Assembly: GCA_965248925.1 (NCBI GenBank)
Contig: CBDFLE010000006.1
Span: forward strand, 3,360,001-3,424,000
From: Candidatus Multivoradales bacterium
GTDB lineage: Bacteria > Acidobacteriota > Thermoanaerobaculia > Multivoradales > J023
Length of the DNA: 64,000 bases
Direction of reading: 5' to 3'
Position 1 is the first letter of the stretch. Each line of letters opens with the position of its first letter. The notes beneath the pieces are model-generated. The model was not told the DNA's origin. It ran no database searches and saw only the letters and a list, made by a program, of their open reading frames with translations. This document shows, piece by piece, positions 5,916 through 27,498 of this stretch. The position numbers and the translations under genes were made by a program.

Positions 5916-7350
5916 CTTCTATGTTGCTTCTATGTTGCCACCCAAGTCGGCAGAATCATCGGAGATCGCGGTCTTCCGGCTCTGAAGAACGCAAACTCCT
6001 GCTGTTTGGCGTCTCGATCGGGCGCCTTGATCGACGATTCGTGTCCTTGAGCTTGCGGAAATCTACATTGACAGAGACGGGATGTCACCCGCGCCAACCC
6101 TTTGCGAATCAAGGGCGGACCTCTCCTGTAGAGAGTTGAAGATACTCTCGAACTCGGCCCCTTGCGGGTTGGTTAAGGCGGTGATGGCAACTGTGACGAT
6201 GCTGTCAATCCGTGCGCGCGGGCCGGCCCCGCGCGGCTCCGGGGCTGTCCGGCGCCGCTCGATGTGCATGGGCGCGCAGGCGGAAAGCATCCCGGCGGAA
6301 ACTCCACCGAGTAGTCGCCCGATCGCAGGCGAGTCGCCGCTTCTCGATATGCCTCGACGAACAGGCGGTAAGCTTCCTTCAACTGTTCTCGGACCGCCTT
6401 TGATGCGGCATGCACCACCGGTGCCGGAGACCTCTTAGTGCGCAGAGGACTCTCGTGTGGGTGCTGCTTGCGGATTGCCGTCGCACCCAGAGGTACGGTG
6501 CCGCCAAGCACTACCCTCCGGGCGTTCTTAGCGTCGATTTCCGCGATCATGTCGGAGATCCGCTGGCGGATCTCTGCGGGAGGGAGGTGCTGCCAGCAGG
6601 GTAGGGGATCAAGCTGCAGCGTGTAGCGCTCGATAAAGTCCTCAGGGTCGGTCTCTTTGCCGCGGCGGTTGGCCTCGTATTCGAGGCTGCGGTCGCGCCA
6701 GATCCCTTCGAGGGTTTTGCCTTGGGTGAGAGCCTCGAGACACTGAAGCCCCGGCCAATCCCGGCAGCGTAGCACCAGATGTTCCTTCGCACCGTGACTG
6801 ATCACATACCGAAGCCGGGAGACCATCGCGGCTTCTTCTTCGCTAACTTCGATGGCTCGGAACCGGCGGCCCCAGAATTTTTCTCGCCAGTTGACCCTGC
6901 GGCCAGCCTCGCGGGCGAGATTGCCATTGACGTATTCCATGAAGCCGGACAGATCTTTGATGTCGGTGGCTCCAAGTAGGAAATGGAGATGGTTTCGGAG
7001 CCCGCCGAATGCGTAGATCTTCACCGGGTGCCTCTGCTGGGCGCGGGCGATGATGCCGACCGCAATGCTGCGGAATTGTCCGTCAGCAGGCAGAAGGAAT
7101 CGGCTTTGGAGGCATCGCGTAGTGATTTCGAAAATGGCGCCGCCGGGGCGCAAGTGTCGCAAGAGTCTTGACATACCCCCTGTAGACGGCAAGAGGGTTC
7201 CCAATCTTGACAGTTCGCGGGAGAAAAGTTGGTGGATTGTGCGGTGGGGTGGAGCCGCGGTCCTTTGCGACCGATGTAAGATGCTGAAAACAAGAGAGTA
7301 CGGTTGGGGTGGCACCCCGCTGGCACCCCGCTGGGAGCACCCCGCTGGGA
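5916..7350 (-). mobile_element. RAYT-like (Y1 HUH transposase) element, full copy A
   Basis: Transposase ORF, ~300-bp tail shared with 9581-9905, inverted TGCCACCC(C/A)A motifs near both ends, and end motif GAGTACGGTTGGGGTGGCACCCC followed by tandem GCACCCCGCT units. Confidence 0.8.
6173..7174 (-). CDS. REP-associated tyrosine transposase-like protein (Y1_Tnp/HUH)
   Basis: FEITTRC, HUH motif NHLH, FWGRRF, candidate catalytic Tyr in RLRYVISHG, DWPG, C-terminal FPPGCFPP. Confidence 0.85.
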   Translation of the reverse strand: MSRLLRHLRPGGAIFEITTRCLQSRFLLPADGQFRSIAVGIIARAQQRHPVKIYAFGGLRNHLHFLLGATDIKDLSGFMEYVNGNLAREAGRRVNWREKFWGRRFRAIEVSEEEAAMVSRLRYVISHGAKEHLVLRCRDWPGLQCLEALTQGKTLEGIWRDRSLEYEANRRGKETDPEDFIERYTLQLDPLPCWQHLPPAEIRQRISDMIAEIDAKNARRVVLGGTVPLGATAIRKQHPHESPLRTKRSPAPVVHAASKAVREQLKEAYRLFVEAYREAATRLRSGDYSVEFPPGCFPPARPCTSSGAGQPRSRAGPARAHGLTASSQLPSPP

Positions 7351-9344: not shown

Positions 9345-9580
9345 GCACAGGATCGGCTAGTCGCTGGTTGCGGCCAGCTCGCGCACCTTCTTGGGCAATC
9401 GCAAGGGACGGTAGACTTGCTACCCTTCAAGCCGGCCGTAGGCCATGAGCCGCCCGCTGGCGATGCCCTCCGGGGTAGCCTGCACAAAGCCTTCCCAGCC
9501 ACTTTTCATCGCTGACGAGCCTTTGCTCTTAGCGACTGAAGGGCGGTGGATGCCGGTAATCAGCTCGCCTCGCACCAGGG

Positions 9581-10030
9581 CTTCTATGTTGCCACCCAAG
9601 TCGGCAGAATCATCGGAGATCGCAGTTCTCCGGCTCTGAAGAACGCACACTCCTGCTCTTTGGCGTCTCGGTCGGGCGCCTTGATCGAGGGTTTGTGACT
9701 TTGAGCTTGTTGAAATCGTCTTTGCCAGAGACGGGAGGCCAGCCGCTCTAACTCATAGGCGTTTCTAGGGTAGACCTCTCCTGTGGAGAGTTGAAGTTAC
9801 TTTCGAACTCGGTCCCTTGCGCTTTGGTCAAGGCGGTGATGGCAACCGTGACAACGTTGTCTATCCGGGCGAGCGGGTTGGACCCGCACGGCTACAGGGC
9901 TGTCCGGCGTTGCTCGATATGCCTCGACGAACAGGCGGTATGCTTCCTTCAGCTGTTCTCGGACCGCCTTTGACGCGGCATGCACGGCTACGTTTGGGGT
10001 GGCACCCCGAGGGCAGGCACCCCGAGGGCA
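9581..10030 (-). mobile_element. non-autonomous, internally deleted copy B of the RAYT-like element
   Basis: Homologous to 5927-6415 with a deletion between CTCGAT microhomologies, then joined to the end motif TACGTTTGGGGTGGCACCCC; GGCACCCCGAGGGCA x2 at 10001-10030. Confidence 0.85.
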
Positions 10031-10132: not shown

Positions 10133-10750
10133 GTGAGTCGACTGCCAGCCGAGGCCGGGAGTGCTAGCGACCCGATCGCTGCCGCCATCGAGGCGTTTCA
10201 GCGTGGTGTTGATCGCGAGCGCAGCTTCCGGACCATCTTCGAGCGCTTCCACGCGCCCGTCAGGCGCTTCTTCGCCCGTCGCGGCGTGCCGGCCGAGGAA
10301 TGCCCCGATCTAACCCAAGAGGTGTTTCTCGGGATTTATCGTGGACTGGCGAGCTGGCGGCCGGAGGCTCGTTTCGAAACCTGGCTGTTTCACATCGCCA
10401 ACACCACCTGGCTGAAGCGCTTGCGTCACCAGGCGGCGAACAAACGCGCCGGCATCGAGCTGGCGACCGACGATATCGAAGCGTTCGAGCCCGCATTGTG
10501 GCTGGCGGATCGGCAACTCGACCGGCTGCTCGACGGCGAACGCCAACAGGCTTTGCATCAGGCCGTGACCGAGCTTCCCGCGCAGATGCGTAAGTGCTTG
10601 ACTCTGCGGCTCTACCACGACTTGAAGTACCGGGAGATCGCCAGCTTGCAACGGATCTCGCTGGACACCGTGAAAGCTCATCTGTTCCAAGCACGGCAGA
10701 AGCTCAAGCTCAGGCTGAGCGATTTTGCCACCGAGGAACTGCCTTGGTGA
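10133..10750 (+). CDS. ECF RNA polymerase sigma-70 factor
   Basis: DLTQEVF, FETWLFHIANT, LKYREIA, TVKAHLFQARQKLK. Confidence 0.95.
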   Translation: MSRLPAEAGSASDPIAAAIEAFQRGVDRERSFRTIFERFHAPVRRFFARRGVPAEECPDLTQEVFLGIYRGLASWRPEARFETWLFHIANTTWLKRLRHQAANKRAGIELATDDIEAFEPALWLADRQLDRLLDGERQQALHQAVTELPAQMRKCLTLRLYHDLKYREIASLQRISLDTVKAHLFQARQKLKLRLSDFATEELPW

Positions 10751-14633: not shown

Positions 14634-14715
14634 AAAGCAGGGAGCCGGCTAAACCCTTCGGCAGGTTTTGGATTCGAGGCTGCAGAAGACTGGATATGAC
14701 AAAGGAGCGAAGCCG

Positions 14716-15189
14716 ATGAGTGACCCCCTACTAGCGCCCTACGAAAAGATCCTTATCAACACAGAACTCGACCTGGTTCGCTTGGCTGAGCAGGTGACCC
14801 AGCAGGGCCGCTGGCTCGAAGTGGGCGGTGTCATGGTGGCCCTCGAGCTGGTGCACCGCGGTCGCCAGACGCTGCCGGGTTGGGACATCCAACCCTCCAA
14901 TCCGGAGAAAGTCGATCAGATCACCATCCCACCGCCCGACCCCTCTGGATTGATCGGCGAGTTGCCCCACCGTCCGGCGGCGGATTTGCTCGAAGCCGCA
15001 CTGGCCGACTTGCTCGAGCTGCTCAGAGTTGCCGCTGATAGAGAAGATCGCCTGCCGCTCAATGCTTCTCTTCCGGCGTTGCTGCTGGTCGACCGCGCCC
15101 GCCGAGCGGTATCCGGACAGATGGCGGGTGGCAGAGGCGGTGCCAAGGTCGAGCCGCCGGCGCCGATGCCTCCTGATCCCGGTAGCTGA
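14716..15189 (+). CDS. hypothetical protein, two internal repeats ending in PPDP
   Basis: RBS AAGGAG; halves end EKVDQITIPPPDPS and AKVEPPAPMPPDPGS. Confidence 0.7.
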   Translation: MSDPLLAPYEKILINTELDLVRLAEQVTQQGRWLEVGGVMVALELVHRGRQTLPGWDIQPSNPEKVDQITIPPPDPSGLIGELPHRPAADLLEAALADLLELLRVAADREDRLPLNASLPALLLVDRARRAVSGQMAGGRGGAKVEPPAPMPPDPGS

Positions 15190-15316
15190 GAGGCCACTCT
15201 TCTCATCCCATCTCTCGGTCCGGGCCGGGCAGCATCGCTTCCCGGGGTCGGATTGTAGCCAACCAGATGGCAGTGATTCCTTCGCCAGACGACTAGCCCT
15301 TACCTGGAGCACGACC

Positions 15317-15460
15317 ATGACGATCAAGATTCCCAAAGATCCGGCAGGAGAACTGCCGGGCGGTCTCGCAAAGCGCCCCCCTCCGCGGACCTATGACGGC
15401 CCGATGCACCCCGCCAAGCTCCCGCCGCCGACTCCGCCGCCGGTGGACAATGGCGGCTGA
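15317..15460 (+). CDS. 47-aa Pro-rich small peptide
   Basis: RBS GGAG; MTIKIPKDPAGELPGGLAKRPPPRTYDGPMHPAKLPPPTPPPVDNGG; followed by a strong hairpin. Confidence 0.55.
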   Translation: MTIKIPKDPAGELPGGLAKRPPPRTYDGPMHPAKLPPPTPPPVDNGG

Positions 15461-15468
15461 GCAGAAGC

Positions 15469-15506
15469 CGCGGGCATTCGCCGGTGATTGGGCGGGTGCC
15501 CGCGGG
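15469..15506 (+). terminator. GC-rich stem-loop after the small peptide gene
   Basis: CCGCGGGCATTCGCC / GGCGGGTGCCCGCGG; no U-tract. Confidence 0.5.
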
Positions 15507-15703
15507 GTCTGCGACGAGATCGCGGTGGGTCGACAGAGGTGAAGGGCTAGAGTGCGAGTGAGTGCTCCCTACCGGTTCGCCGTCAGGTCCGCAGAGCGAT
15601 GCGCGGATAGACCCAGCTGCTGCATCGCCCGCTGGTCGCTCAGCCGCGGCTCCGGAAGAGCCGATCTAGGTTCTACTTCAGGGTGCCATGAGCAGGACAT
15701 GCC

Positions 15704-16084
15704 TCACGCCTGCAACCACAGCAAGACGGCGAAGATCAGCACTGTCGCGGTGACGAAGCTCTGCACCCAGCGGTGGCCTTTGAGCACCGTCAACCGGGCG
15801 CCGAGGGCGCCACCGACCATGGTGCCGGCGGCTAGCGCCAGGCCGTAGCTCCACCACACCTTGCCGTGGTAGGCGAAGACCGCCAGGGCGAGGCCGGTGA
15901 GACAGAGGATGGTGAGCACTTTGACCGCGTTGCCGCGCACCATGTCGAGGCCGGCGGCGGTGGTGGCGGCGAGCACTAGAAACCCGACTCCGGCCTGGAC
16001 GAAACCACCGTAAGTGCCGACGGCGAAGAAACCCGCGGCAAGGGCCAACGGGTGCGCCGGGCCGGTCACTGGTTGGCTGGGTGC
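15704..16084 (-). repeat. 381-bp direct-repeat copy of the 3' half of the TauE/SafE gene (26740-27120)
   Basis: Aligned by eye with about 10 substitutions, five in the last ~50 bp of the gene. Confidence 0.95.
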
Positions 16085-16390
16085 GAGTACGGTTTGGGTG
16101 GCACCCTGAGAGGGCTATGCGCCGCCCCGAATCTCCTCTGCCGGCAGATGTCGCCAGCAGGTAGAAGGAATCGGCATTGGAGGCAGTGCGTGGTGATTTC
16201 GAAGGTGGCGCCGCCGGGGCGAATGTGTCGGAGATGTCTTGCCATACCCTCTCTCGACGAGGAGAGGGTTGCCAATCTTGCGGTTTGGAGGAGAGAAAGC
16301 TGGCGGATTCTGAGACCGACTGGGAACGCTGTTCCTGGCCTGTCGGATAAGTTGTTGAAAACAACAGAGTACGAGGTGGGTGGTGCCCTT
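16085..16390 (-). mobile_element. copy C of the RAYT-like element: two end motifs plus N-terminal transposase fragment (16149-16245)
   Basis: MARHLRHIRPGGATFEITTHCLQCRFLLPAGD vs copy A MSRLLRHLRPGGAIFEITTRCLQSRFLLPADG; motifs GAGTACGGTTTGGGTGGCACCC (16085) and GAGTACGAGGTGGGTGGTGCCC (16367). Confidence 0.85.
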
Positions 16391-17520
16391 GTGGGCGCCG
16401 ATGCCTCCTGATCCCGGTAGTTGACCTTCAGATCGTCACTTTGGCGAGCCAAGTGAGGTCGGTTTGCCAAGAACGGCGCAACTTGACCTCGCGCTCGAAC
16501 ATAACTGGTGTTTTCCGCAGGAGTAGCGTGTAGGGGCTGCCGCTGCGGCGTGTGGTGTGGCCTACTGGCAGCTCGTGCTGGTCGAGCCTTTCATGCACAT
16601 GCCTTCGTCCTTGCTTGGCAAGTGGCCATTCGAGTTCCTGCCGCGATGGACTGGACAGAAAACGGCGGAGTTTGGCGCAGAGCCGACAGTGGCAATCTGT
16701 CGGTAGATCGATGGACCAATCACCCGGCTTGCGGGGAGCTGAAGTGAGCTGCGCCTTCAGCCGCCGTTGACAGATTTGCTGGATGGCGGTGAGGGCAGGG
16801 GAGGTCTTCCATTGGGTTGGTTTCTTCCGCCCAGCAGTCCGCAGTAGTTGCATCAAGCAAGGGTGCAGCGCCGCATTCTTCTTGAGGCGAAGAAAGGCCA
16901 CTACTTCGTTTCGTAGAGCTGCCGCCCCGCTGGCCGCGGCACCTTCGAGGATGCCGAGGATCGGCTTGGCGAGAGCCTTCACCTCACGCTCCTGGATGCT
17001 AGGTCTCATACCGCAGCGTAGAGTTTGCTGTATTTCCTTTCTCAACCATGCCCAGCGCTCTTCTAAGAGCAGCTTCGCACACCTTCGACCCCGAGTACTG
17101 ATGGCACCTAGGGACGCGCACAGGTGGGGTAGTGAGCCGAGCCAAGTAAGTGGGTTCCGTTGGCGGTAATCCTGCTGGGCGGCCCACTGTGAGAGTAGGG
17201 ACCTGGTCCAGTCTTCGCCATAGCCCTTGGCCAGCGCTATCCAAGCGGACGCACACCTCGCTCTGAGGTCCTCGACGCAGAAGGGTTCGAGGAGGCCAGT
17301 GGCCAACGCTGGGCTGGCCAGAGCCTCGGCGACTTGCAGAGTTTGATCGAAGAATCCACGACGTTTCTCGGCCGGGACGGTCTCTGCCCAGAAAGACATC
17401 AGAGAGGTGGCCAGATCCTGGGCCTCGGTGAGCTTGCCACGGCGCAGGTGCTGCCTCAGGCTTTGTAGGGCCCAGGCGGGCGGAATGTGTCAATGAGAAT
17501 GAGACACTTTCTTCTGGGAA

Positions 17521-18642
17521 TTAGTACGGAATCGGTAGTGGCTCCGGCACCATCGCTTTCAACGAGGGCGCGCAGGCAGGTGTCTCGCCTGGTGCGTCGT
17601 CGTCTACGCGGTGTGTCACCTCGTTCTCGGTATCGGCTGGGTCAGTGCTGGTGGTGGTGATCGGCGGGTTGATCCAGACCTCGCCACTGGGCTCCGGCAA
17701 AGCCGGCGTTCGCCGCTTGAAGCGGCTCGGATGAGCGGCTGAGGCGGCGGCGAGGACTTCTCGACGTTGCTCCAGCACTGAGGCCGTGAGGCCGTAGTGG
17801 ACGGTCTCTGGCGTCAACAAACCGAGTCCTGTGTGGTAGTGCTGCGTGTTGTACCAGCCGAGGAACGAGCGGCAGAACGCTCGTGCATCTTCCAGTGATC
17901 CGAAGCGGTCGGGAAAGCTCGGATGGTACTTGAGCGTCTTGAACTGGGCCTCAGAGAACGGATTGTCGTTGCTCGTGTAGGGCCGGTTCAGCGACCGTGT
18001 CATCCCGAGATCGGCCAGCAGTAGAGCCACTGGCTTGGATGTCATGCTCGAACCGCGGTCCGAGTGCAAGGTAAGTCGATCTCGCTCAACACCTTGCTTC
18101 TCAACACTGTCGGCGATCAACCGCTTCGCGAGTCCTCCGGACTCGCGGGAGGCGAGCATCCAGCCGACGATGTAGCGGCTGAAGACGTCCAGAATTACGT
18201 AAAGGTAGTAGTAGGTCCACTTCACCGGGCCCTTGAGCTTGGTGATGTCCCACGACCACACCTCGTTCGGCCCTGTGGCCAGCAGTTCGGGCTTGGTGTA
18301 GTTGGGATGACGCCGCTGACGGCGTCGCTCGCGCAGCTCGCCCTCAGACTCCAGGACCCGGTACATGGTGCGCACCGAGCAGATATGGCGCTGGTCCTCG
18401 TCCAGCAGCGCCGCCCAGACTTGACGCGGCGAGCGGTCGACGAAGCGCTCCGAGTGCAACACATCGAGGACCTCCTGGCGTTCAGCGGGCGTCAATGCCA
18501 GCGGCGGTCGACGCCGCGTCAATAGTCTCGGCCCTGCGCTCTGCTGCCGACGGCGGCGATAGAAAGTGGCTCTGGGGACCGCCAAGGCGACGCAGGCTGC
18601 TTGCACCCCCACCGTCAATGCCAGCGGCGCCACAGCGCTCAT
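17521..18642 (-). CDS. IS3 OrfB DDE transposase
   Basis: WSWDITK, HSDRG, NDNPFSEAQFKTLK motifs. Confidence 0.95.
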   Translation of the reverse strand: MSAVAPLALTVGVQAACVALAVPRATFYRRRRQQSAGPRLLTRRRPPLALTPAERQEVLDVLHSERFVDRSPRQVWAALLDEDQRHICSVRTMYRVLESEGELRERRRQRRHPNYTKPELLATGPNEVWSWDITKLKGPVKWTYYYLYVILDVFSRYIVGWMLASRESGGLAKRLIADSVEKQGVERDRLTLHSDRGSSMTSKPVALLLADLGMTRSLNRPYTSNDNPFSEAQFKTLKYHPSFPDRFGSLEDARAFCRSFLGWYNTQHYHTGLGLLTPETVHYGLTASVLEQRREVLAAASAAHPSRFKRRTPALPEPSGEVWINPPITTTSTDPADTENEVTHRVDDDAPGETPACAPSLKAMVPEPLPIPY

Positions 18643-19052
18643 GACTGGCTCTCGCTCGGCTCGATCCCTAGCAGTCGGGAAAGTTTTTTTTGGACATCGA
18701 TGATCGTCTCGGCTTTGTACAGCTGATGCTTGAGCCGGGCAATCTCACGCTCAAGCTCCGCGACGCGGCGGGCCTCAGCAGAGACCGACCGACGCTTACG
18801 ACCGCGCTTCTTCGACAAACCGGCCAGAGCACTGGCATCGCGTTGTTGGCGCCAATTCGATAGTAGAGATGAATACAGACCCTCCCGGCGAAGCAGGGCG
18901 CCAATCTCGCCGGGCTTGCTACACGCGTCGGCGGCCTGGACGATGCTCAGCTTGTACGACGCGCTGTACCGCCGCCGCTTCGCCTTCTCAGTTACCTCGG
19001 GATCTGGTCGGTCAGCACTCATATCTCGCAGCTCGTGGCTTGGACTCGCCAT
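18639..19052 (-). CDS. IS3 OrfA (HTH and leucine zipper)
   Basis: GEIGALLRREGLYSSLLSNWR; A8 slippery run near the 3' end; ATGA overlap with orfB. Confidence 0.9.
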   Translation of the reverse strand: MASPSHELRDMSADRPDPEVTEKAKRRRYSASYKLSIVQAADACSKPGEIGALLRREGLYSSLLSNWRQQRDASALAGLSKKRGRKRRSVSAEARRVAELEREIARLKHQLYKAETIIDVQKKLSRLLGIEPSESQS

Positions 19053-20749
19053 GGTGTTTGCTCTCCACGCCCTCACTAATTTATCGGTACGGGAGTGTCT
19101 CACTTACATTGGCACAGAGGGGGCGACGCTTCGGCTCGCACGACGAAACTCTGCTGGCGCGGCCACAAAACGATGGCCGCTCGGCGATACCAGCGATCCA
19201 TAGTGTTGCCGGCATTGCCCGTGAATCCCTCGTACTCGGAGGTATGCGCTTCGAGGTCTGAGGATGGGGTGGTGGAGCACACTTCCTCGCTGCCGACGTT
19301 GGTGACGATGGGCACTTTCTGGGTTTGCGAGGAGTCGATCCAATGGGTCAGAGTGATTTCAGAATCGATCAGCTCGCCCAGTTCATAGACGTCCGGATCG
19401 TCGGTTGGCGGGTCGTCCTCGTACCAATCCTCATCCTCGTCGCGTTGCCAGCTGCGGTGCCTACGGTTCCTTCTGTCGTCCCAGTCGGAATCCATGCAGG
19501 TCCACGATTCGTGAACCTCGGCGAGGGCCAGTGCCGCTTCACAATCGCCGCTACCGGCTGCCTCTAGTAGGGCCTCCGCGCGTGCTCGATCATTGCCCTT
19601 GAGACGCTGCCAGCTAAGTCCCCGTTCGGTGTATTGGTGATCAAGAAGGTACACCAGCCGCAGCGGCGGCTCTCGCTGAGCCGCATCTTTCTGCCATTCC
19701 CAGCGCGGGGGGAGGGGGGTCTCGAAGTGCTCGCGCAGGTGTTGCAGCAGCTTTCGGGTCGGTCGGGTCGTTGAAGCAGCGCCTGCGAGTCGCAGCTTGG
19801 CTTCCTCGCCAACCAACATCAAGTTGTAGGTCAGGACGATTCGGTAGCCCTCCTTGACCGGCCGCACCTCATGTTGGCAATCAGCGTAGAAGGCGAGGAA
19901 CGATAGGTACTTCTTCGAGCCGCGGTAAGTGGCACTCTTGCCTTGATGCTCGATGATCATCGCGCCGCCCTTGAACGAGGAGGGCAGGGTTACGACCAGG
20001 GTGCCGACCATCTCGTCGGCTTTCTCCGAATCCTGATGGGGCAAGAAGAACTGGCCCGGAGCGTAGACCAGCATGGCGTGTAGCTCGGCTTTGAGCTGCA
20101 AATCTTCTGGAATCCCGAGGTCCATTCCCAGCTGCTCGAGGGTTGGTAGCAGAGTCTGCTTCCAGCGCCGCAGGTCGATCTTCACGCGGCTCTTGGGGAT
20201 CTCCCAAGTGTCCCGAACCTGCCGGTCGAGCAGAGTCTTCTTTCCTTGCCCGAAGCGTGCCGGCCGGCCGATCTGGCACAGCTGCTTGGCCTGCTGACGA
20301 GAAATCGGAAAGCGCAATCGTCCGACCCCCTTCACCTCCAGCCGCAGGTCCTCGGTTGGCCGAGATTGGCGAGCGCTGAAGCTGCCAGGAGTGTCGATCT
20401 TGCCGAGCAGATCGGCGATCAGTCCGCGGGTTGTAGTGGTCACGGGGAGGCTCCTGATTCTGTTACCAGTGAAGCTGTGATGGTGTCACATCGAGCTCCC
20501 GCTGTGCTTTGCGAAATGGAAGCAGGGCTGAAGCCGTCTTGCCGACCACTTTGGTGCAGAAGTCGACAGTAGACTTTTACAGGAAGGGCTATTCCCGATA
20601 CCATGGCAGCGCATCAGAGATATCCGTTTTCTGCATGAAGGTGGTTGGCGGCTACCGAGAATTCGTGAGTTCTAAGGGATGAAAGTTCAACGGGAGTCAC
20701 CGGCGCTCCGCCGGGGTCAATTTTGATCTGTACTTGGAGTCGTGGGCGA

Positions 20750-23029
20750 ATGGTAGTTCTTGTCGTATTGGTCTTGTTGGCGGTTGTAATTGCAGGTGTT
20801 ATGGCCGCTGGCCAGGGGGAGAAGGCCCCTCCGAATGCCAGCTCTCGGCTCTTAAGCGAGCGAGAGGAGGGGCTCAGTATTCAAAGGACGGTCCCGAACT
20901 ATCGTCATCCGCCTTCGCACAAGCCACCATCGACCAGTCGCCAGTGCTGGCAGCCCCAAGATCGGGAGGTGGAGATCGGTAGCCATACGGTCAAGGGGGG
21001 GCTGATCTATGTCGGCACTAATCTCCCGAGCGTCTCTGAATGGCTTGGGACCGAGCCGGCGCTTATCGACCCGAGCCTTGCTCGTGACATCAGGAATCCG
21101 GACCACGGTGGTGCGGGAATGGCCTACTGGCCGGCCTATGAGTCGATTCACCCGCGCTGCCGATCGGCCTATCTCGCATGGCTCGAGGGGGGTAGAAGTG
21201 ACCCTGGAGCCTATATCGGATACGTATTTCTGTACTTCTATGGGCTAGAACGGCGAGCCTTGCACGACGCTGCGAACCGGTCTGCTGCCGACCGGGAATT
21301 GCCGCAGATCGAGACTGAAGTCCAACGGTTGCTCTCGGTCTACGGCCAGAATCGCTCCTTTCGTGGCTACGCTTTACAATTTCTGGAGATCCTGCGGCTG
21401 CGAGCCGGTGATTGGCAGCCAGAATCAGAGCCGCCGCAGGGGTTGGTCCACAATGAGCTTTCCCTCGCCTTCCGCTTGGCCGTGGGCCAGATGGCAACTG
21501 CGGGCTCTCCACTGCCGGCCAAATGGGCGTTGGCGTGGGCGAGGTGTGATGGGAATATCAATCTTAGAACTCCTGCCTATCGATGTGAGGAGGAATTCAA
21601 TAAAATATTTCAGATTTGCTATTTCGAGAAGCACGGTGAGGGTCTACGGCTGAAGAAATGTAAGCGGAAGATCTTGGCCAGATACCGTCCGGCCAGCCCT
21701 TCCTTCCGCGGCTCCATAACTGTAGAAACGCCTTATCCGGAGGTGACGAACCTGGTAGGGCCGCGCCGCAAAATACAGCAAGTGGCGCTGGCCTGCTGTG
21801 ATGCCTTAGACGCTTACAGCCGCTGGCTCGGCCGCAACAAGAACGGTCGCGGCTCCTTGTTGGCCGCGGCGCTGATGCCGCCTGAGCTGTTGGCCTCGCA
21901 CGCGCCGGAGGAGTTTTCTAGCCTGCGGAGTCTGCTCCAGCAGAGTGTAGGCGACCGGCCCGCCGCTCTACTGCCAGCGGTAGAGGTACTGGGCTGTTGG
22001 TTCGGCACTGGAGAGAACACCAAACTAACCAAGAGCCAAGCAGTGCAAGCCGCGCACCTTTTGGGCCGAGCTGGGTTTGGTTTCGAACCGGATGTTCGGT
22101 TCTGTGGCCAGAAACCTGAAAGTGCAGGCCAGGTCGTAGTCTTTCCGTTGGCCGGTGATGAGGGCGTCTGCCCCTCTCTAGAATACTTGGCCGCTGTCGT
22201 TCTGCTCCATCTTGCGGTGATGGTTTCGGCCGCTGATGGGGAGGTTGGCCTGGATGAGCAGCAGCATCTCAGGGACCATCTCGCGGGGGGTCTTGAACTC
22301 CAGCAGGCCGAGATTCGACGGTTGGGTGCCTACCTCGAATGGTTGTTGCTCTATCCTCCTGGGAGTCTGGGAGGTAAGAAGCGAATCGAGCATCTTGCAC
22401 CGCAACAGCGTGCGACTATCGGTGAGCTTTCGGTCGCCGTAGCCTGTGCGGACGGTCGCGTAGATCCCGACGAGATCAAAATGCTGACGAAGATCTTCCG
22501 GTTTCTCGGCCTCGACCCTGGAACCGTGCATGAGTGGCTGCACAGTTACCAAACTTCTGGTGACATCGGTCCCGTCCTGGTGACCTCAGGCAATCGTCAG
22601 TGTCATCCTGGCCACCCCTTGCCAACTCCCCTTGATGGCACCGCCCCAGGTGGAGCGGTCGTCCGGCTGGATCCTGCCCTGGTGGCGGCAAAACTGCGGG
22701 AATCGGAGAAAGCCGCGGTGACTTTGGCCGGCATCTTTGATGATGAGGATCAGGAAACTCCTGCGATACCGTTGCCGTCTACCGGGCCGGCAGGCGGCAC
22801 GGTCGAGGGTCTGGATGGAGCCCATTCAGCCCTCTTCCGGAGGCTGGCGAAGAGGGCATCGTGGCCGCGGTCAGACTACGAGGACCTCGCGGACGAACTC
22901 GGACTCCTACCGGATGGCGCTATAGATTTGCTGAACGACATAGCCTTTGAGCTGTGCGACGAGCCCTTCATTGAGGGCGATAATCCGTTGGAGATTAACG
23001 AGCTTGTAGCATTGGAGATACTCGAATGA
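20750..23029 (+). CDS. sngA: TerB-N/TerB/TerB-C domain protein (Shango SngA-like)
   Basis: N-terminal TM; TerB-N YWPAY...YLAWL...GYVFLYFYGLERR; TerB SAADGEV and CADGRVD; TerB-C GAIDLLNDIAFELCDEPFIEGD. Confidence 0.85.
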   Translation: MVVLVVLVLLAVVIAGVMAAGQGEKAPPNASSRLLSEREEGLSIQRTVPNYRHPPSHKPPSTSRQCWQPQDREVEIGSHTVKGGLIYVGTNLPSVSEWLGTEPALIDPSLARDIRNPDHGGAGMAYWPAYESIHPRCRSAYLAWLEGGRSDPGAYIGYVFLYFYGLERRALHDAANRSAADRELPQIETEVQRLLSVYGQNRSFRGYALQFLEILRLRAGDWQPESEPPQGLVHNELSLAFRLAVGQMATAGSPLPAKWALAWARCDGNINLRTPAYRCEEEFNKIFQICYFEKHGEGLRLKKCKRKILARYRPASPSFRGSITVETPYPEVTNLVGPRRKIQQVALACCDALDAYSRWLGRNKNGRGSLLAAALMPPELLASHAPEEFSSLRSLLQQSVGDRPAALLPAVEVLGCWFGTGENTKLTKSQAVQAAHLLGRAGFGFEPDVRFCGQKPESAGQVVVFPLAGDEGVCPSLEYLAAVVLLHLAVMVSAADGEVGLDEQQHLRDHLAGGLELQQAEIRRLGAYLEWLLLYPPGSLGGKKRIEHLAPQQRATIGELSVAVACADGRVDPDEIKMLTKIFRFLGLDPGTVHEWLHSYQTSGDIGPVLVTSGNRQCHPGHPLPTPLDGTAPGGAVVRLDPALVAAKLRESEKAAVTLAGIFDDEDQETPAIPLPSTGPAGGTVEGLDGAHSALFRRLAKRASWPRSDYEDLADELGLLPDGAIDLLNDIAFELCDEPFIEGDNPLEINELVALEILE

Positions 23030-24435
23030 AGAGCACCAAGACCATCCGTCCGCGAGATCGTGATGCCATCCTGCAGAGTCTGCGGGCGGGGGTCGTGCCA
23101 CGACGCGGACATCGCCATATCCAGGTCGGCCGGCACCAAGAACTCGCCGCAATCGTACGCGATGTCGAGCGGATAGCCGACGCGGGCTCGGCGATCCGCT
23201 TCATCATCGGTCCTTTCGGCTCCGGCAAGACCTTCTTTCTCAGTCTGGTGCGCGCCGTCGGATTGCAGAAGAAATTGGTAGTCGTACACGCCGATATGGC
23301 ACCAGACCGCAGGCTTTTCTCGACCGGTGGCCAGGCCCGCCTTCTCTATGCCGAATTGATGCGCAATTTGGCAACTCGCTCTCGGCCCGACGGTGAGGCA
23401 CTGCCGGCGGTTGTCGAAAGGTTCGTCAGTTCGGCACTCAGCGAGGCGCGAGAGCGCGGTGTGCAGACACCGGTGGTGATTCAAGAGCGGCTGGAATCGC
23501 TTTCTGAGATGGTCGGTGGTTACGACTTTGCTCATGTCATCGGGGCCTATTGGCAGGCCCACGACAGCGGTGATACACAGCTTCAGACGCAGGCGATCCG
23601 CTGGTTACGGGGCGAATTCTCGACCCGGACAGATGCCCGCAAGGCCTTGGGCGTGCGAACCATTGTCGATGACCACAACGTCTACGACCAACTGAAGCTG
23701 ATGGCCCGGTTCGTGCGCCTGGCCGGATACGGTGGTCTGTTGGTCTGCATTGATGAGCTGATCAACCTCTATAAGCTGTCGAATAAACGGGCACGCGACT
23801 CAAACTTCGAGCAAATCCTGCGCATCCTTAACGACTGCCTCCAGGGGTCGGCGGCGGGGCTCGGGTTCATCTTCGGCGGGACGCCGGAGTTTCTCACCGA
23901 TACTCGCCGCGGTCTCTACAGCTACCAGGCTCTCCAGTCGCGGTTGGCGGAGAATACCTTTGCCACAGACGACCTGGTCGATTTGAGCGGCCCGGTGCTG
24001 CGCCTTGCGAATTTACTGCCGGAAGATATCTTCGTACTGCTCTCCAAGCTCCGGCATGTTTACGCCAGTGGTGATCCTGATCAGCATCTGGTGTCCGACG
24101 AGGGACTCAGCGCATTCATGGAGCATTGCTCGCGGCGGATCGGGGACCGATATTTCAGAACCCCCCGCAACACCATCAAGGAGTTCGTCAGTCTGCTGGC
24201 GGTTCTCGAACAGAATCCTGGGACCAGCTGGAACCAGCTGCTGCCGAATATTCGGGTTGAAGAAGAAGGCAATCCGGATCTGGCGCCGCTGCCGGAAGAT
24301 GTGGAAAAGGAGGACCCGTCCGAGCGTCAAGAGTCTGCGGCGGAAGTGACTCGGCCGGCGGAGCCGGCGACAGATGGCGGCACGGATGAGGAGTCTGCTG
24401 AAGCCGATGACGACCTGGCCTCGTTTCGGCTCTGA
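23026..24435 (+). CDS. sngB: P-loop ATPase, DUF2791/BrxD-like (Shango SngB-like)
   Basis: SLRAGVVP, Walker A GPFGSGKT, Walker B VCIDE, RTPR; ATGA overlap with upstream gene. Confidence 0.85.
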   Translation: MKSTKTIRPRDRDAILQSLRAGVVPRRGHRHIQVGRHQELAAIVRDVERIADAGSAIRFIIGPFGSGKTFFLSLVRAVGLQKKLVVVHADMAPDRRLFSTGGQARLLYAELMRNLATRSRPDGEALPAVVERFVSSALSEARERGVQTPVVIQERLESLSEMVGGYDFAHVIGAYWQAHDSGDTQLQTQAIRWLRGEFSTRTDARKALGVRTIVDDHNVYDQLKLMARFVRLAGYGGLLVCIDELINLYKLSNKRARDSNFEQILRILNDCLQGSAAGLGFIFGGTPEFLTDTRRGLYSYQALQSRLAENTFATDDLVDLSGPVLRLANLLPEDIFVLLSKLRHVYASGDPDQHLVSDEGLSAFMEHCSRRIGDRYFRTPRNTIKEFVSLLAVLEQNPGTSWNQLLPNIRVEEEGNPDLAPLPEDVEKEDPSERQESAAEVTRPAEPATDGGTDEESAEADDDLASFRL

Positions 24436-24447
24436 GGAACCTCTCCC

Positions 24448-26676
24448 ATGACCGAGGAACCTGCCTTCGCGGCTTTCGAGCTGCTCGACGATCGAGTGAA
24501 GCAGTGGATTGGGAATGCCGGTTGGACGGAGCTTCGTGACATTCAGGCCGCCGCGATTCGGAGCATTCTCCAGCTGCGAACGGATGTGATCATCGCCGCG
24601 GCAACGGCTACCGGCAAGACCGAGGCGGCTTTTCTACCGATCTGCTCCGCGCTGGTGGGTAAGGTCGGGAATAGGGGTATCCAGACCCTCTACGTCAGCC
24701 CCCTCAAGGCGCTGATCAATGACCAGTATCGCCGACTCACTGACCTTTGCCAGGGCTTGGAGATTCCGGTGCATCGCTGGCACGGGGATGTGCTGCCCGG
24801 TCACAAGAAGAAGGTCTTGGCGCGGCCGTCCGGGATTCTGCTGATCACCCCTGAGTCGCTGGAAGCTCTGCTCGTCCTTCGCGGGCACCTCATGGGGCGA
24901 TTCTTCGCTGCCCTTGACTGGGTGGTGATCGACGAACTCCATGCTTTCATCGGCACCGACCGCGGTCGCCAACTACAGTCGCTGCTACACCGGATCGAGT
25001 TGCGAGTGCGTCGCCGGATACCTCGCGTCGGACTGAGCGCTACGCTCGGTGATCTCACGTTCGCGGCTCGCTTTCTGCGTTCAGCCGATAGCCGGTCGGG
25101 TGGTCAGCAGGCGGTCGAAACGATCGTTTCTCGCAGCGAGGGCCAAGAGCTTCTGCTCCAGATTCGAGGCTACGTGGAGCCCGCGGCGCAACCCGAGGAC
25201 GCCCCTGCTCAGTCAGAAATTGAGGTCGGCGGCGTCGCGGGGATTGCCGACCACCTGTTTCGAACCCTTCGCGGCCAAGATCATCTGGTCTTTGCTAACA
25301 GTCGTGGCAATGTTGAGCAGTACGCCGATCTGCTGCGGCGACGCTCGACCGCTGAGCGCCTTGCGAACGAATTTTTCCCCCACCATGGCAACCTTTCGCG
25401 GGAGTTGCGCGAGGTGGTCGAGGAGCGTCTCAAGGACCCGACCGTCCCGACGACCGCCATTTGCACCTCGACTCTCGAACTCGGGATCGATATCGGACGC
25501 GTGGCGAGCATCGGCCAGATCGGCGCTCCTTTCTCGGTGGCGAGCCTGCGCCAACGGCTGGGCCGCTCTGGACGCCGAGACCAACCCGCGGCTCTTCGCA
25601 TCTATATCCATGAGCCGGAGGTCATGGCCCGAAGCCATTTGCTAGATCGTCTGCGCGCGGGCCTGGTGCAGGCCGTTGCCATGGCTGAGTTACTGATTGA
25701 GAAGTGGTGTGAGCCGTCGACCGAGGGCGCGCTCCATCTCTCGGCCCTGGTGCAACAAATTCTGTCCCTGGCTGCCGAACATGGAGGGGTGATTGCTCAG
25801 GATGCCTGGCGGGCACTGGTCGAGTCCGGACCGTTCGCCTCAGTGTCCTCGGCGCAGTTCCTTCGCTTGCTGCGCTGCATGGGTGCCGCGGATCTGCTGA
25901 TACAGTCGGCAGACGGCACCTTGCTGCCGGGCGAGAAGGGTGAGCGGATTGTCAACCATTTTACTTTCTATACGATTTTCCAGACGCCAGAAGAGTATCA
26001 GGTGCTTCATCAAGGACGTTCGCTAGGCACTTTGACGTTCGACCATCTGCTTGCCGAGGGACTCCACATCATCTTTGCCGGACGTCGCTGGAAAGTTGTT
26101 GGGGTCGACACAGAGCAGAAAGTTGTCTCGGTCGAGCCCTCTCCTGGTGGCCGCGTTCCGACCTTCCTCGGCAGTTCGGGCGGGAGGATCCACGACCGGA
26201 TCCGGACCAAGATGAGGGAGGTTTGGTCGGAGGGAGAGGTTCCTCGGTACCTCGACAAGGGTGCCAGAAAGTTGCTCTTGCAGGCTCGGGCCAAATACGC
26301 CGGGCTGGGACTGGGGGCGGATCGCCTGATTGCATCTGGAAAGGATACGATCGTTTTCCTCAGCCGGGGGGACACGATTATGAACACGGTTGCCCTCCAG
26401 CTCTTGGCACGACAGATGGAGGTCGCCCAGATAGGGCCCGCGCTTTCTATTAGCTCTGCAACGCCAGGAGAGGTGCGAAGAGTTCTGACCGCGATGGTCG
26501 ATGAAGGCCCTGCGGATCCCCTGGAACTCGCCAGCCATGCCAGCAATAAGCAGATCGGGAAATACGATTGGGTATTGGATGAGGAACTCTTGGATGCTGA
26601 GTATAGCGCGTCTTCGCTCGATCCGAATGCGGCCCATATTGCGTTATGTGAACTACTGGGTCCTGAGAGTGCATGA
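24448..26676 (+). CDS. sngC: Lhr-like DEAD/DEAH-box helicase (Shango SngC-like)
   Basis: ATATGKT, DELH, SAT, HHG, TSTLELGIDIG, QRLGRSGR. Confidence 0.9.
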   Translation: MTEEPAFAAFELLDDRVKQWIGNAGWTELRDIQAAAIRSILQLRTDVIIAAATATGKTEAAFLPICSALVGKVGNRGIQTLYVSPLKALINDQYRRLTDLCQGLEIPVHRWHGDVLPGHKKKVLARPSGILLITPESLEALLVLRGHLMGRFFAALDWVVIDELHAFIGTDRGRQLQSLLHRIELRVRRRIPRVGLSATLGDLTFAARFLRSADSRSGGQQAVETIVSRSEGQELLLQIRGYVEPAAQPEDAPAQSEIEVGGVAGIADHLFRTLRGQDHLVFANSRGNVEQYADLLRRRSTAERLANEFFPHHGNLSRELREVVEERLKDPTVPTTAICTSTLELGIDIGRVASIGQIGAPFSVASLRQRLGRSGRRDQPAALRIYIHEPEVMARSHLLDRLRAGLVQAVAMAELLIEKWCEPSTEGALHLSALVQQILSLAAEHGGVIAQDAWRALVESGPFASVSSAQFLRLLRCMGAADLLIQSADGTLLPGEKGERIVNHFTFYTIFQTPEEYQVLHQGRSLGTLTFDHLLAEGLHIIFAGRRWKVVGVDTEQKVVSVEPSPGGRVPTFLGSSGGRIHDRIRTKMREVWSEGEVPRYLDKGARKLLLQARAKYAGLGLGADRLIASGKDTIVFLSRGDTIMNTVALQLLARQMEVAQIGPALSISSATPGEVRRVLTAMVDEGPADPLELASHASNKQIGKYDWVLDEELLDAEYSASSLDPNAAHIALCELLGPESA

Positions 26677-26739
26677 GAGCTCCCGGGCAGCCGCCGCCAC
26701 CTGGGAGCATTCATGCGCTGCGTCACTCAGCCACTATTC

Positions 26740-27498
26740 TCACGCCCGCAGCCATAGCAAGACGGCGAAGATCAGCACCGTCACGGTGACGAAGCTCTGC
26801 ACCCAGCGGTGGCCTTTGAGCACCGTCAACCGGGCGCCGAGGGCGCCACCGACCATGGTGCCGGCGGCTAGCGCCAGGCCGTAGCTCCACCACACCTTGC
26901 CGTGGTAGGCGAAGACCGCCAGGGCGAGGCCGGTGAGACAGAGGATGGTGAGCACTTTGACCGCGTTGCCGCGCACCAAGTCGAGGCCGGCGGCGGTGGT
27001 GGCGGCGAGCACTAGAAACCCCACTCCGGCCTGGACGAAACCACCGTAAATGCCGACGGCGAAGAAACCAGCGGCAAGGGCCAACGGGTGCGCCGGGCCG
27101 GTCGCTGGTTGGCTGGGTGCCGATTGGCCGGGGCGTAGAGTCCATAGGGTGATGGCGACCATCAAGCCGGCCAGCAGGCGTTGGAAGGCGCGGTCGCTGA
27201 TCTCTAGCGCTGCCCAGCTGCCGAGGGCGGCGCCGAGGGTGGCGGGCAATGCCGCCCACAGCAGGGAGCGCAGATCGAGCAGGCCGTAGCGCTTAAAGCT
27301 GTGCACCGCCGAGACGTTCTGCAGCAAAATCCCCACCCGGTTGGTGCCGTTGGCGATACCGGGCGGCAGGCCGAGGAAGATCAGGGTCGGCAGGGTGATG
27401 AATGAGCCGCCGCCAGCGAGGACGTTGAGAGTGCCGCCGATCAAGCCGGCGCCGGCCAGGAGCACATAGCCGGTCCAATGACCGTCGAGAGCCTGCAT
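26740..27498 (-). CDS. sulfite exporter TauE/SafE family protein
   Basis: LAGGGSFITLPTL, ANGTNR, GIYGGFVQAGVG; multiple TM helices. Confidence 0.9.
   Translation of the reverse strand: MQALDGHWTGYVLLAGAGLIGGTLNVLAGGGSFITLPTLIFLGLPPGIANGTNRVGILLQNVSAVHSFKRYGLLDLRSLLWAALPATLGAALGSWAALEISDRAFQRLLAGLMVAITLWTLRPGQSAPSQPATGPAHPLALAAGFFAVGIYGGFVQAGVGFLVLAATTAAGLDLVRGNAVKVLTILCLTGLALAVFAYHGKVWWSYGLALAAGTMVGGALGARLTVLKGHRWVQSFVTVTVLIFAVLLWLRA

Follow-up and report, generated by a model that had tools for sequence, protein, structure and literature searches.

To our knowledge, most defence islands carry no recognisable mobility genes, and the route by which their cargo moves is an open question. Here we examine a locus that poses this question directly. 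It lies in the 8.0-Mb, soil-type genome of a Candidatus Multivoradales bacterium (G000; 6 contigs, 62% G+C), within a stretch of 64,000 nucleotides (G000:C6:3360001-3424000, hereafter the window), whose genes have their closest relatives in metagenome-assembled genomes of Acidobacteriota. A complete Shango operon is found there between two copies of the 3' half of tauE, a gene for a membrane transporter, and one of these copies ends exactly at the edge of a short module associated with Y1 HUH (RAYT-like) genes. How did this cargo arrive, given that no recombinase accompanies it? We tentatively favour an explanation in which two alleles of a single slot in the chromosome, one unoccupied and one occupied, are both present at the locus, the occupied one having been inserted next to its sister by recombinase-free single crossover or by homology-anchored joining; we rate this reading above its competitors and still short of probable.

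The 3' half of tauE forms a direct repeat of 382 bp, identical at 372 positions (97.4%), which is present in exactly two copies in the whole genome. One copy (B1) is an orphan, while the other (B2) belongs to an intact gene. On the outer side both copies stop 1 nt beyond the tauE stop codon, and on the inner side their final 16 nt are identical. The repeat brackets a block of 10,654 bp (16085-26738) containing a 309-bp remnant of a Y1 HUH element, a 2-oxoglutarate (2OG) oxygenase gene split by an IS3-family insertion sequence (IS), and a complete Shango operon. The left junction is exact to the base: tauE homology extends to 16084, and GAGTACGGTTTGGGTGGCACCC begins at 16085. This 22-mer, when up to three mismatches are allowed, has two matches in the window against 0.00 expected from 100 shuffles. 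These observations bear out the initial annotation of the locus, which had reported copies of tauE with about 97% identity around a 10.6-kb block, a base-exact left junction and a Shango-type operon inside.

A second repeat, missed in that annotation, is interleaved with the first. It is exactly 31 nt long, has two copies only in the genome (A1, 15159-15189, and A2), and is identical at 30 of the 31 positions. A1 constitutes the terminal 31 nt of the open reading frame (ORF) orf173, including its stop codon, and lies 514 bp to the left of the orphan tauE fragment. Thus, the order on the plus strand is A1 - c1 (513 bp) - B1 - J (the 309-bp HUH remnant) - A2 - c2 (10.3 kb) - B2 (Table 1). In both segments, the homology of A and B halts at the stop codons of orf173 and tauE on the inner sides, and the interiors c1 and c2 are unrelated, a sequence comparison having yielded no similarity between them; that two unrelated interiors both meet the same stop codons counts in favour of two alleles. 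Since the sequence to the right of the HUH remnant (A2) is homologous to that on the left of the orphan tauE, the cargo slot is the gap between orf173 and tauE, and not tauE itself. The earlier proposal that an island entered tauE and supplied it with a replacement 3' end finds no support in that form, as the 31-nt repeat places the slot outside the gene. Judged from this layout, the duplication of tauE would be a by-product of joining a second allele, and the empty site seems to be preserved in this very genome as A1-c1-B1.

Table 1. Features of the locus (positions in the window)
Feature	Position	Strand	Description
Nearest intact Y1 HUH gene	6173-7171	-	332 aa; REP-like module at 7296-7317
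orf173	14668-15189	+	orphan ORF after a CHAT/TPR gene; no Pfam family
c1	15190-15702		513-bp spacer from the orf173 stop to the orphan tauE stop; genome-unique
B1	15703-16084	-	orphan tauE 3' half, codons 127-252 and stop; apparently decaying
REP-like module	16085-16114	+	GAGTACG-nnnn-GGGTGGCACCC-TGAGAGGG; first base after tauE; without the usual left context
Joint segment	16115-16150		36 nt; no other genome copy
Y1 HUH remnant	16151-16393	-	approximately the first 32 codons (16151-16245), upstream region and canonical module with left context (16367-16388); found by tblastn
A2	16394-16424	+	directly to the right of the canonical HUH module; separated by 3 nt from the oxygenase stop codon
Oxygenase, C-terminal half	16428-17480	-	residues 442-792 of P0005; frame open to the IS edge
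IS3-family IS	17481-19121	-	orfA 18639-19103, orfB 17521-18642; splits the oxygenase gene
Oxygenase, N-terminal half	19121-20443	-	PF13640; residues 1-442 of the 811-aa P0005, 65% identity
SngA (TerB_N, TerB, TerB_C)	20723-23029	+	PADLOC SngA 2.6e-82
SngB (BrxC/BrxD-like ATPase)	23026-24435	+	Pfam PF10923 1.8e-150; PADLOC SngB 4.3e-179
SngC (DEAD/DEAH helicase)	24448-26676	+	Pfam; PADLOC SngC 1.7e-259
B2	26739-27120	-	tauE 3' half inside the intact gene, codons 127-252 and stop
Intact tauE	26740-27498	-	252 aa; Pfam TauE 2.2e-38; full-length alignment to relatives

The orphan B1 appears to be a displaced fragment that has been in decay for some time. The two copies differ at ten sites, five of them synonymous and five non-synonymous, and at residues 132, 150, and 174 the orphan carries states found in 0/28, 0/28, and 1/27 relatives, respectively, whereas B2 has the consensus; derived residues at three conserved positions indicate that the decay is not new. 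A search for terminators in c1 gave nothing convincing, terminator and promoter scans around both tauE ends yielded nothing above shuffles, and no Rfam family reached its gathering score anywhere in the window.

In the reading that we favour, the slot would be the space between the stop codons of the convergent orf173 and tauE. Allele 1 (15159-16084) would be the cargo-free form with its 513-bp spacer, and allele 2 (16394-27120) the form in which 10.3 kb of oxygenase and Shango genes approach the two stop codons to within 3 nt and 63 nt. The alleles would have in common no more than their two ends, namely the 31-nt orf173 tail and the 382-bp stretch of tauE, and would stand in tandem, head to tail, with J as the novel joint. 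As the donor we infer a closely related strain in which the cargo occupied the gap from orf173 to tauE, with a HUH element placed 31 nt ahead of the orf173 stop. Its occupied allele, bounded on one side by this degenerate HUH/REP (repetitive extragenic palindromic) element, would have entered the unoccupied resident allele without a site-specific recombinase, by one of two routes: a Campbell-type single crossover of an 11,036-bp circle (16085-27120) inside the 382-bp tauE homology, or the capture of a linear piece held by homology at its right end and attached by illegitimate joining at 16084. Both routes would produce the arrangement orf173-c1-tauE3' (orphan) / HUH remnant / orf173 tail-cargo-tauE (intact). 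The tauE gene would thus be kept intact, its displaced 3' half would decay, and the HUH remnant would mark the closure joint, where the edge of the REP module was perhaps cut and joined by a Y1 HUH enzyme. The IS3 copy would have split the oxygenase gene later. For the homologous step, 382 bp at 97% identity are ample for RecA-type recombination.

Several points weigh against this reading. orf173 may not be a gene: no homologue was found in the 23 other genomes of the family or in the assembled genome contigs searched, and the slot is at most a candidate for a conserved hotspot. With five synonymous and five non-synonymous differences, the two tauE copies could equally be diverged alleles or the outcome of long decay in place, the numbers being too small to tell the two apart. 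A HUH element that landed at a plain duplication joint, accompanied by flanking deletions, gives the same picture, hence its position is no proof of a role in the event. Neither allele was seen alone: among 40 relatives searched with tauE none belongs to the same genus (best match 71% aa identity), and the 17 loci that the tauE protein retrieved from metagenome contigs (best 68% aa) were uninformative. Finally, in contigs assembled from the short reads of four runs, all of the same sample, we saw neither a joint that bypasses the block nor the joint of a circle; since rare variants are lost from contigs, this absence is weak and does not argue against excision.

The same contigs bear on the soundness of the assembly. 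Repeats and some 25 IS copies complicate assembly here, and a false duplication of the tauE end might be suspected. This is very improbable: the short-read contigs hold both tauE copies apart, each with its own single-nucleotide polymorphisms and with no differences from the assembly, and one contig bridges the left junction (16038-16235), again without differences. As the runs are probably derived from the source sample, they do not constitute a fully independent check. The joints listed in the read contigs fall within or beside the IS3 copy and the stretch of HUH paralogues.

The comparison with relatives covered more distant genomes. At 14 tauE loci of relatives (approximately ±10 kb), the upstream side is partly syntenic, with DUF547 in three and a MacB-like gene in three, and none contains orf173, Shango or a duplicated tauE 3' end. 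The exact 25-nt junction pattern of tauE had no matches in genome contigs or in metagenome contigs. Two relatives, whose tauE is the most similar and which belong to one genus and hence represent one observation, have a gene of 434-440 aa directly downstream of tauE. Its counterpart in G000 (C6:3337625-3338866, 74% identical, same orientation) is 21 kb to the left of the window and 36.8 kb to the left of the orphan fragment. All 48 kb from this counterpart to tauE may be variable; a search of the 40 kb to the left for a third tauE fragment in a more advanced state of decay found none with E < 0.2. A contig from a low-coverage sediment metagenome (L050:297-449) matches tauE residues 200-250 only (65% aa), preceded by 296 nt that do not match, and may be another orphan tauE 3' fragment.

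What, then, is the sequence at the joint? The initial annotation took it for the end of a RAYT-like HUH element, and the boundary does belong to a Y1 family of such elements. The protein encoded by the nearest intact gene of the family matches Pfam Y1_Tnp (4.9e-8; 33.6 bits against a cut-off of 23) and contains an HLH motif (residues 61-63) as well as the tyrosine of the stretch RLRYVISHG. Its score with the NCBIfam model REP_Tyr_transpos (NF047646) is 44.3 bits, under the cut-off of 80, and does not amount to an equivalog-level match. The genome contains five full-length paralogues at 76-78% aa identity, several fragments, and a second subfamily at approximately 40%. About 125 nt upstream of each HUH gene, on the opposite strand, there is a module of the form GAGTACG-nnnn-GGGTGGCACCC-TGAAAGG, with the usual left context '..gtaagctgttgaaaacaaga' ('ttgaaaaca..'). 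Candidate sites of this module number 21 genome-wide, and the module occurs on the upstream side of the gene only, in one orientation. Its tandem arrays (C6:891974-892062; 2886872 and 2886951) start at the G of GA(G/A)(T/C)ACG, and this base is hence the natural edge of the unit. It is also the first base after tauE at 16085, and the left boundary of the block is accordingly an edge of a HUH-family module.

The module at 16085 is identical in 21/22 positions to that of the intact neighbour (7296-7317). The remnant behind it has six paralogous places in the genome at 70-87% nt identity, the nearest at 86% and the neighbouring intact copy at 76%. Two further modules are devoid of the left context, at window position 9986 and at C5:2082700, with breaks no more than 3 nt from the first base of the module, and the module at C6:484451 has a degenerate left context. 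All four have the GGTT-like spacer of the intact neighbour's module, whereas those of the other paralogues differ. At window positions 9580-10007, a fragment of a HUH gene (the 3' part from about residue 248, with downstream sequence) is cut exactly by the module at 9986-10007, forming a junction of the same type as that at the tauE fragment. Duplicated flanks were found at 16085 only and at none of the ten other module sites tested. No conserved second end of the HUH family was found, and the traits of IS200/IS605 elements, i.e., near-identical copies and two conserved subterminal hairpin ends, are not seen here, the homology being confined to the gene and its upstream module. That the junction was made by a HUH enzyme is plausible, if unlikely.

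A stronger role for the enzyme was envisaged initially, namely that a RAYT-like HUH system mobilised or captured the defence cargo. Spelled out, a Y1 enzyme would nick at 16085, where the module has its 5' edge, a strand would be displaced through the cargo into tauE, closure would occur at a pseudo-site after ...GGGTGC, and the resulting 11-kb circle would re-enter tauE by strand transfer or homology; we regard this course of events as improbable. The base-exact junction at a module edge speaks for it, as do the near-identity of the 16085 module to that beside an intact HUH gene 9 kb away, the GGTT-like spacer subtype that this gene's module shares with the modules of absent or degenerate context, the presence of the HUH and tyrosine motifs, and the absence of any other recombinase nearby. 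Against it, duplicated flanks accompany a single locus and none of the ten other module sites, the right end at 27120 has neither hairpin nor module, no conserved second end was found, and paralogues at 76-78% aa are old copies rather than a recently active element. Moreover, RAYT-type Y1 enzymes are not known to move kilobases (PMC8266576; PMC6006769), and the same picture results if the remnant merely landed at the joint. The general form of the idea, in which the 28-nt module serves a RAYT-like Y1 HUH enzyme as a one-ended origin from which an 11-kb cargo strand is peeled off, its circle re-entering related genomes, appears equally doubtful. What stands of the initial proposal is the junction at a module edge, which recurs at two other odd junctions of the genome; mobilisation of the cargo itself is still drawn from one locus.

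A more conventional candidate is a site-specific integrase, now lost. No tyrosine or serine recombinase was detected with Pfam in the seven large ORFs of the block, in agreement with what had been noted before, and a six-frame search of the genome with PF00589 and PF00239 returned 37 Phage_integrase and 4 Resolvase matches, none of them in the 64-kb window; the nearest, at C6:3501654, is 78 kb past the window end. A transposase present in the block, the DDE (rve) enzyme of the IS3 element, is part of an IS with its own target duplication. A classical integrative island, whose tyrosine or serine recombinase acted on an attP with the tauE 3' half and was lost from the 16085 end by HUH/REP insertion-deletion, is nevertheless an alternative, raised in outline in the initial annotation, and an unlikely one. 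Such islands are usually recognised by an intact gene whose 3' end is repeated directly, the last 16 identical nt of the repeat could be the crossover core, 16085-16393 is the scar of multiple events with at least two breakpoints, and the decayed orphan implies that the event is not recent. However, this account leaves the 31-nt orf173 tail on the inner side of the scar unexplained, the six-frame search gave no recombinase remnant in the window, and with SngC ending 63 nt from the tauE stop there is no room for a recombinase at that end. A high-identity orphan tauE 3' half is present in G000 only among 41 genomes (its own and those of 40 relatives) and in 0/17 metagenome loci, and the contexts of the closest Shango operons are unrelated, none of the ten large flanking ORFs scanned being an integrase gene.

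The locus might also have arisen by local rearrangement alone, through a tandem duplication from the orf173 tail to mid-tauE, followed by gain or loss of cargo in one copy and, afterwards, by insertion of a HUH element at the joint. A tandem duplication would be expected to leave interleaved repeats, and the derived residues of the orphan fit decay in place. Yet unrelated interiors meet stop codons on both sides, and replacement of an interior needs homology that copy 2 does not have beyond the 31 nt of orf173, so that a second allele is required in any case; we give this scenario a slightly lower standing than mobilisation by a HUH enzyme. Insertion of a sister allele by homology thus remains our preferred, if tentative, explanation.

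Tyrosine recombinases do occur elsewhere in the genome in a distinctive arrangement. Arrays of near-identical 372-aa genes (seven at C5:923200-976003 and three at C6:3501654-3517752), spaced at 7.5-12 kb and with identical Pfam scores, look like an integrative element repeated in tandem.

The cargo itself is an ordinary complete Shango system and a disrupted accessory gene. Shango has been defined as a three-gene operon encoding a TerB-domain protein, an ATPase, and a DEAD/DEAH helicase (PMC10250203). Here, PADLOC and Pfam recognise all three genes, SngA having matches to TerB_N (1.2e-56), TerB (1.1e-10), and TerB_C (3.2e-19). The genes lie on one strand, with neighbours overlapping by 4 nt or spaced by 12 nt, and the predicted SngABC operon is complete, its anti-phage role being likewise predicted. 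In the two nearest Shango operons, SngB is 84% and 89% identical at the aa level (about 70% nt), and only the three sng genes are held in common with our block; no integrase was found among ten large flanking ORFs scanned. At the locus with the closest SngB (L029:12926-16310; 89% aa), the genes after Shango encode a caspase-domain protein, an ECF sigma factor, and a CHAT-like protein. This sigma factor is 36% identical to that at 10133-10750 of the window, where a sigma/anti-sigma/CHAT operon likewise stands within a few kb of Shango.

The accessory gene encodes a member of the 2OG-Fe(II) oxygenase family that would be approximately 790 aa long when intact, its 31 longer homologues having 674-833 aa. 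The two halves are contiguous in 78/80 related loci, and neither Shango nor tauE was found near the oxygenase in any of the 80. As the oxygenase stands apart from Shango and tauE in all of these loci, the cargo is a mosaic assembled in the slot rather than one conserved element. The family of ~800-aa oxygenases, with PF13640 at the N-terminus and an uncharacterised C-terminal half containing a CxC..CxxC stretch, is patchy but widespread, with 255 relatives mainly in Acidobacteriota and Actinomycetota. In two of the 80 loci (L059:6553-6699 and L064:6534-6761), a stretch resembling the HUH C-terminus (40-45% aa) is located about 1.3 kb upstream.

The IS3 copy that separates the halves has terminal inverted repeats TG..CA and a GGG target duplication (17478-17480 / 19119-21), which fits the single Pro codon duplicated between the two halves; its transposase matches rve (1.6e-23) and NF033516 (187 bits against a cut-off of 160). 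The 1.64-kb element has 25 full-length copies in the genome, this one included, at 95.8-100% identity, as well as several partial copies, and appears to be very active there. The IS3 transposase was considered as the mover of the block and dropped, because this copy is one of 25 and is flanked, within the oxygenase gene, by a 3-bp duplication of its own.

If the two-allele reading is right, the locus appears to keep the unoccupied allele, the occupied allele, and the joint linking them, and would be a concrete example of recombinase-free acquisition of Shango. The part of the HUH element decides how far the implications go. Had it not cut, the locus would be an ordinary product of homologous recombination between strains, with the HUH remnant as a bystander. 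Had a HUH enzyme cut the module edge, domesticated RAYT-like proteins would gain a role in the movement of kilobase cargo, and a one-ended HUH origin would further predict integrase-free defence islands with a REP edge on one side and a duplicated gene fragment on the other. HUH catalysis, if shown, would therefore make the locus much more interesting.

Among known systems, integrase-mediated islands target the 3' ends of tRNA, tmRNA, or protein genes and bring a replacement end. The locus is similar to these in its direct repeat of a gene's 3' part around the cargo, with the gene intact and an orphan 3' fragment displaced; it differs in the absence of a recombinase or its remnant, in the length (382 bp) and near-identity of the repeat, and in having a second, interleaved repeat and a slot outside the gene. 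Campbell-type crossover or homology-facilitated illegitimate recombination leaves the incoming DNA between two copies of the homologous stretch, with one new joint. The order here is the same, but the joint is the edge of a REP-like module, not plain microhomology, and the process would have to be read back from its product. IS91 and ISCR are rolling-circle elements with Y2 Rep-like HUH transposases that pick up neighbouring DNA by read-through of their terminator. They resemble our locus in having one defined end, another undefined in host DNA, kilobase cargo, and no integrase, whereas the HUH family described here is Y1_Tnp and has no intact gene in the moved segment; the rest of the genome was not searched for a Y2 gene.

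REPtrons combine a RAYT/TnpA(REP) gene with its cognate REPs (PMC8266576; PMC6006769). The likeness comprises a Y1 HUH protein beside a short hairpin module with a conserved 5' motif, and dispersed solo modules. In contrast to the two-sided, highly repeated REPs of that description, we find about 20 modules instead of hundreds, on one side of the gene only, along with five diverged paralogues, a second subfamily, and a 332-aa protein with a long C-terminal part that scores below the NCBIfam cut-off. The core defence hotspots cDHS1 and cDHS2 of P. aeruginosa harbour cargo, including Shango, between fixed chromosomal flanks, and this cargo does not obviously belong to any one class of mobile element (PMC10250203). 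Shango between chromosomal flanks is the feature shared with our locus, where, by contrast, orf173 is absent from 23 family genomes and two alleles stand side by side in one chromosome. In outline, the locus thus resembles islands that replace the 3' end of a gene, and in substance, recombinase-free defence hotspots; it is unusual in that both alleles and the joint between them survive in one chromosome, with the joint at the edge of a REP-like module.

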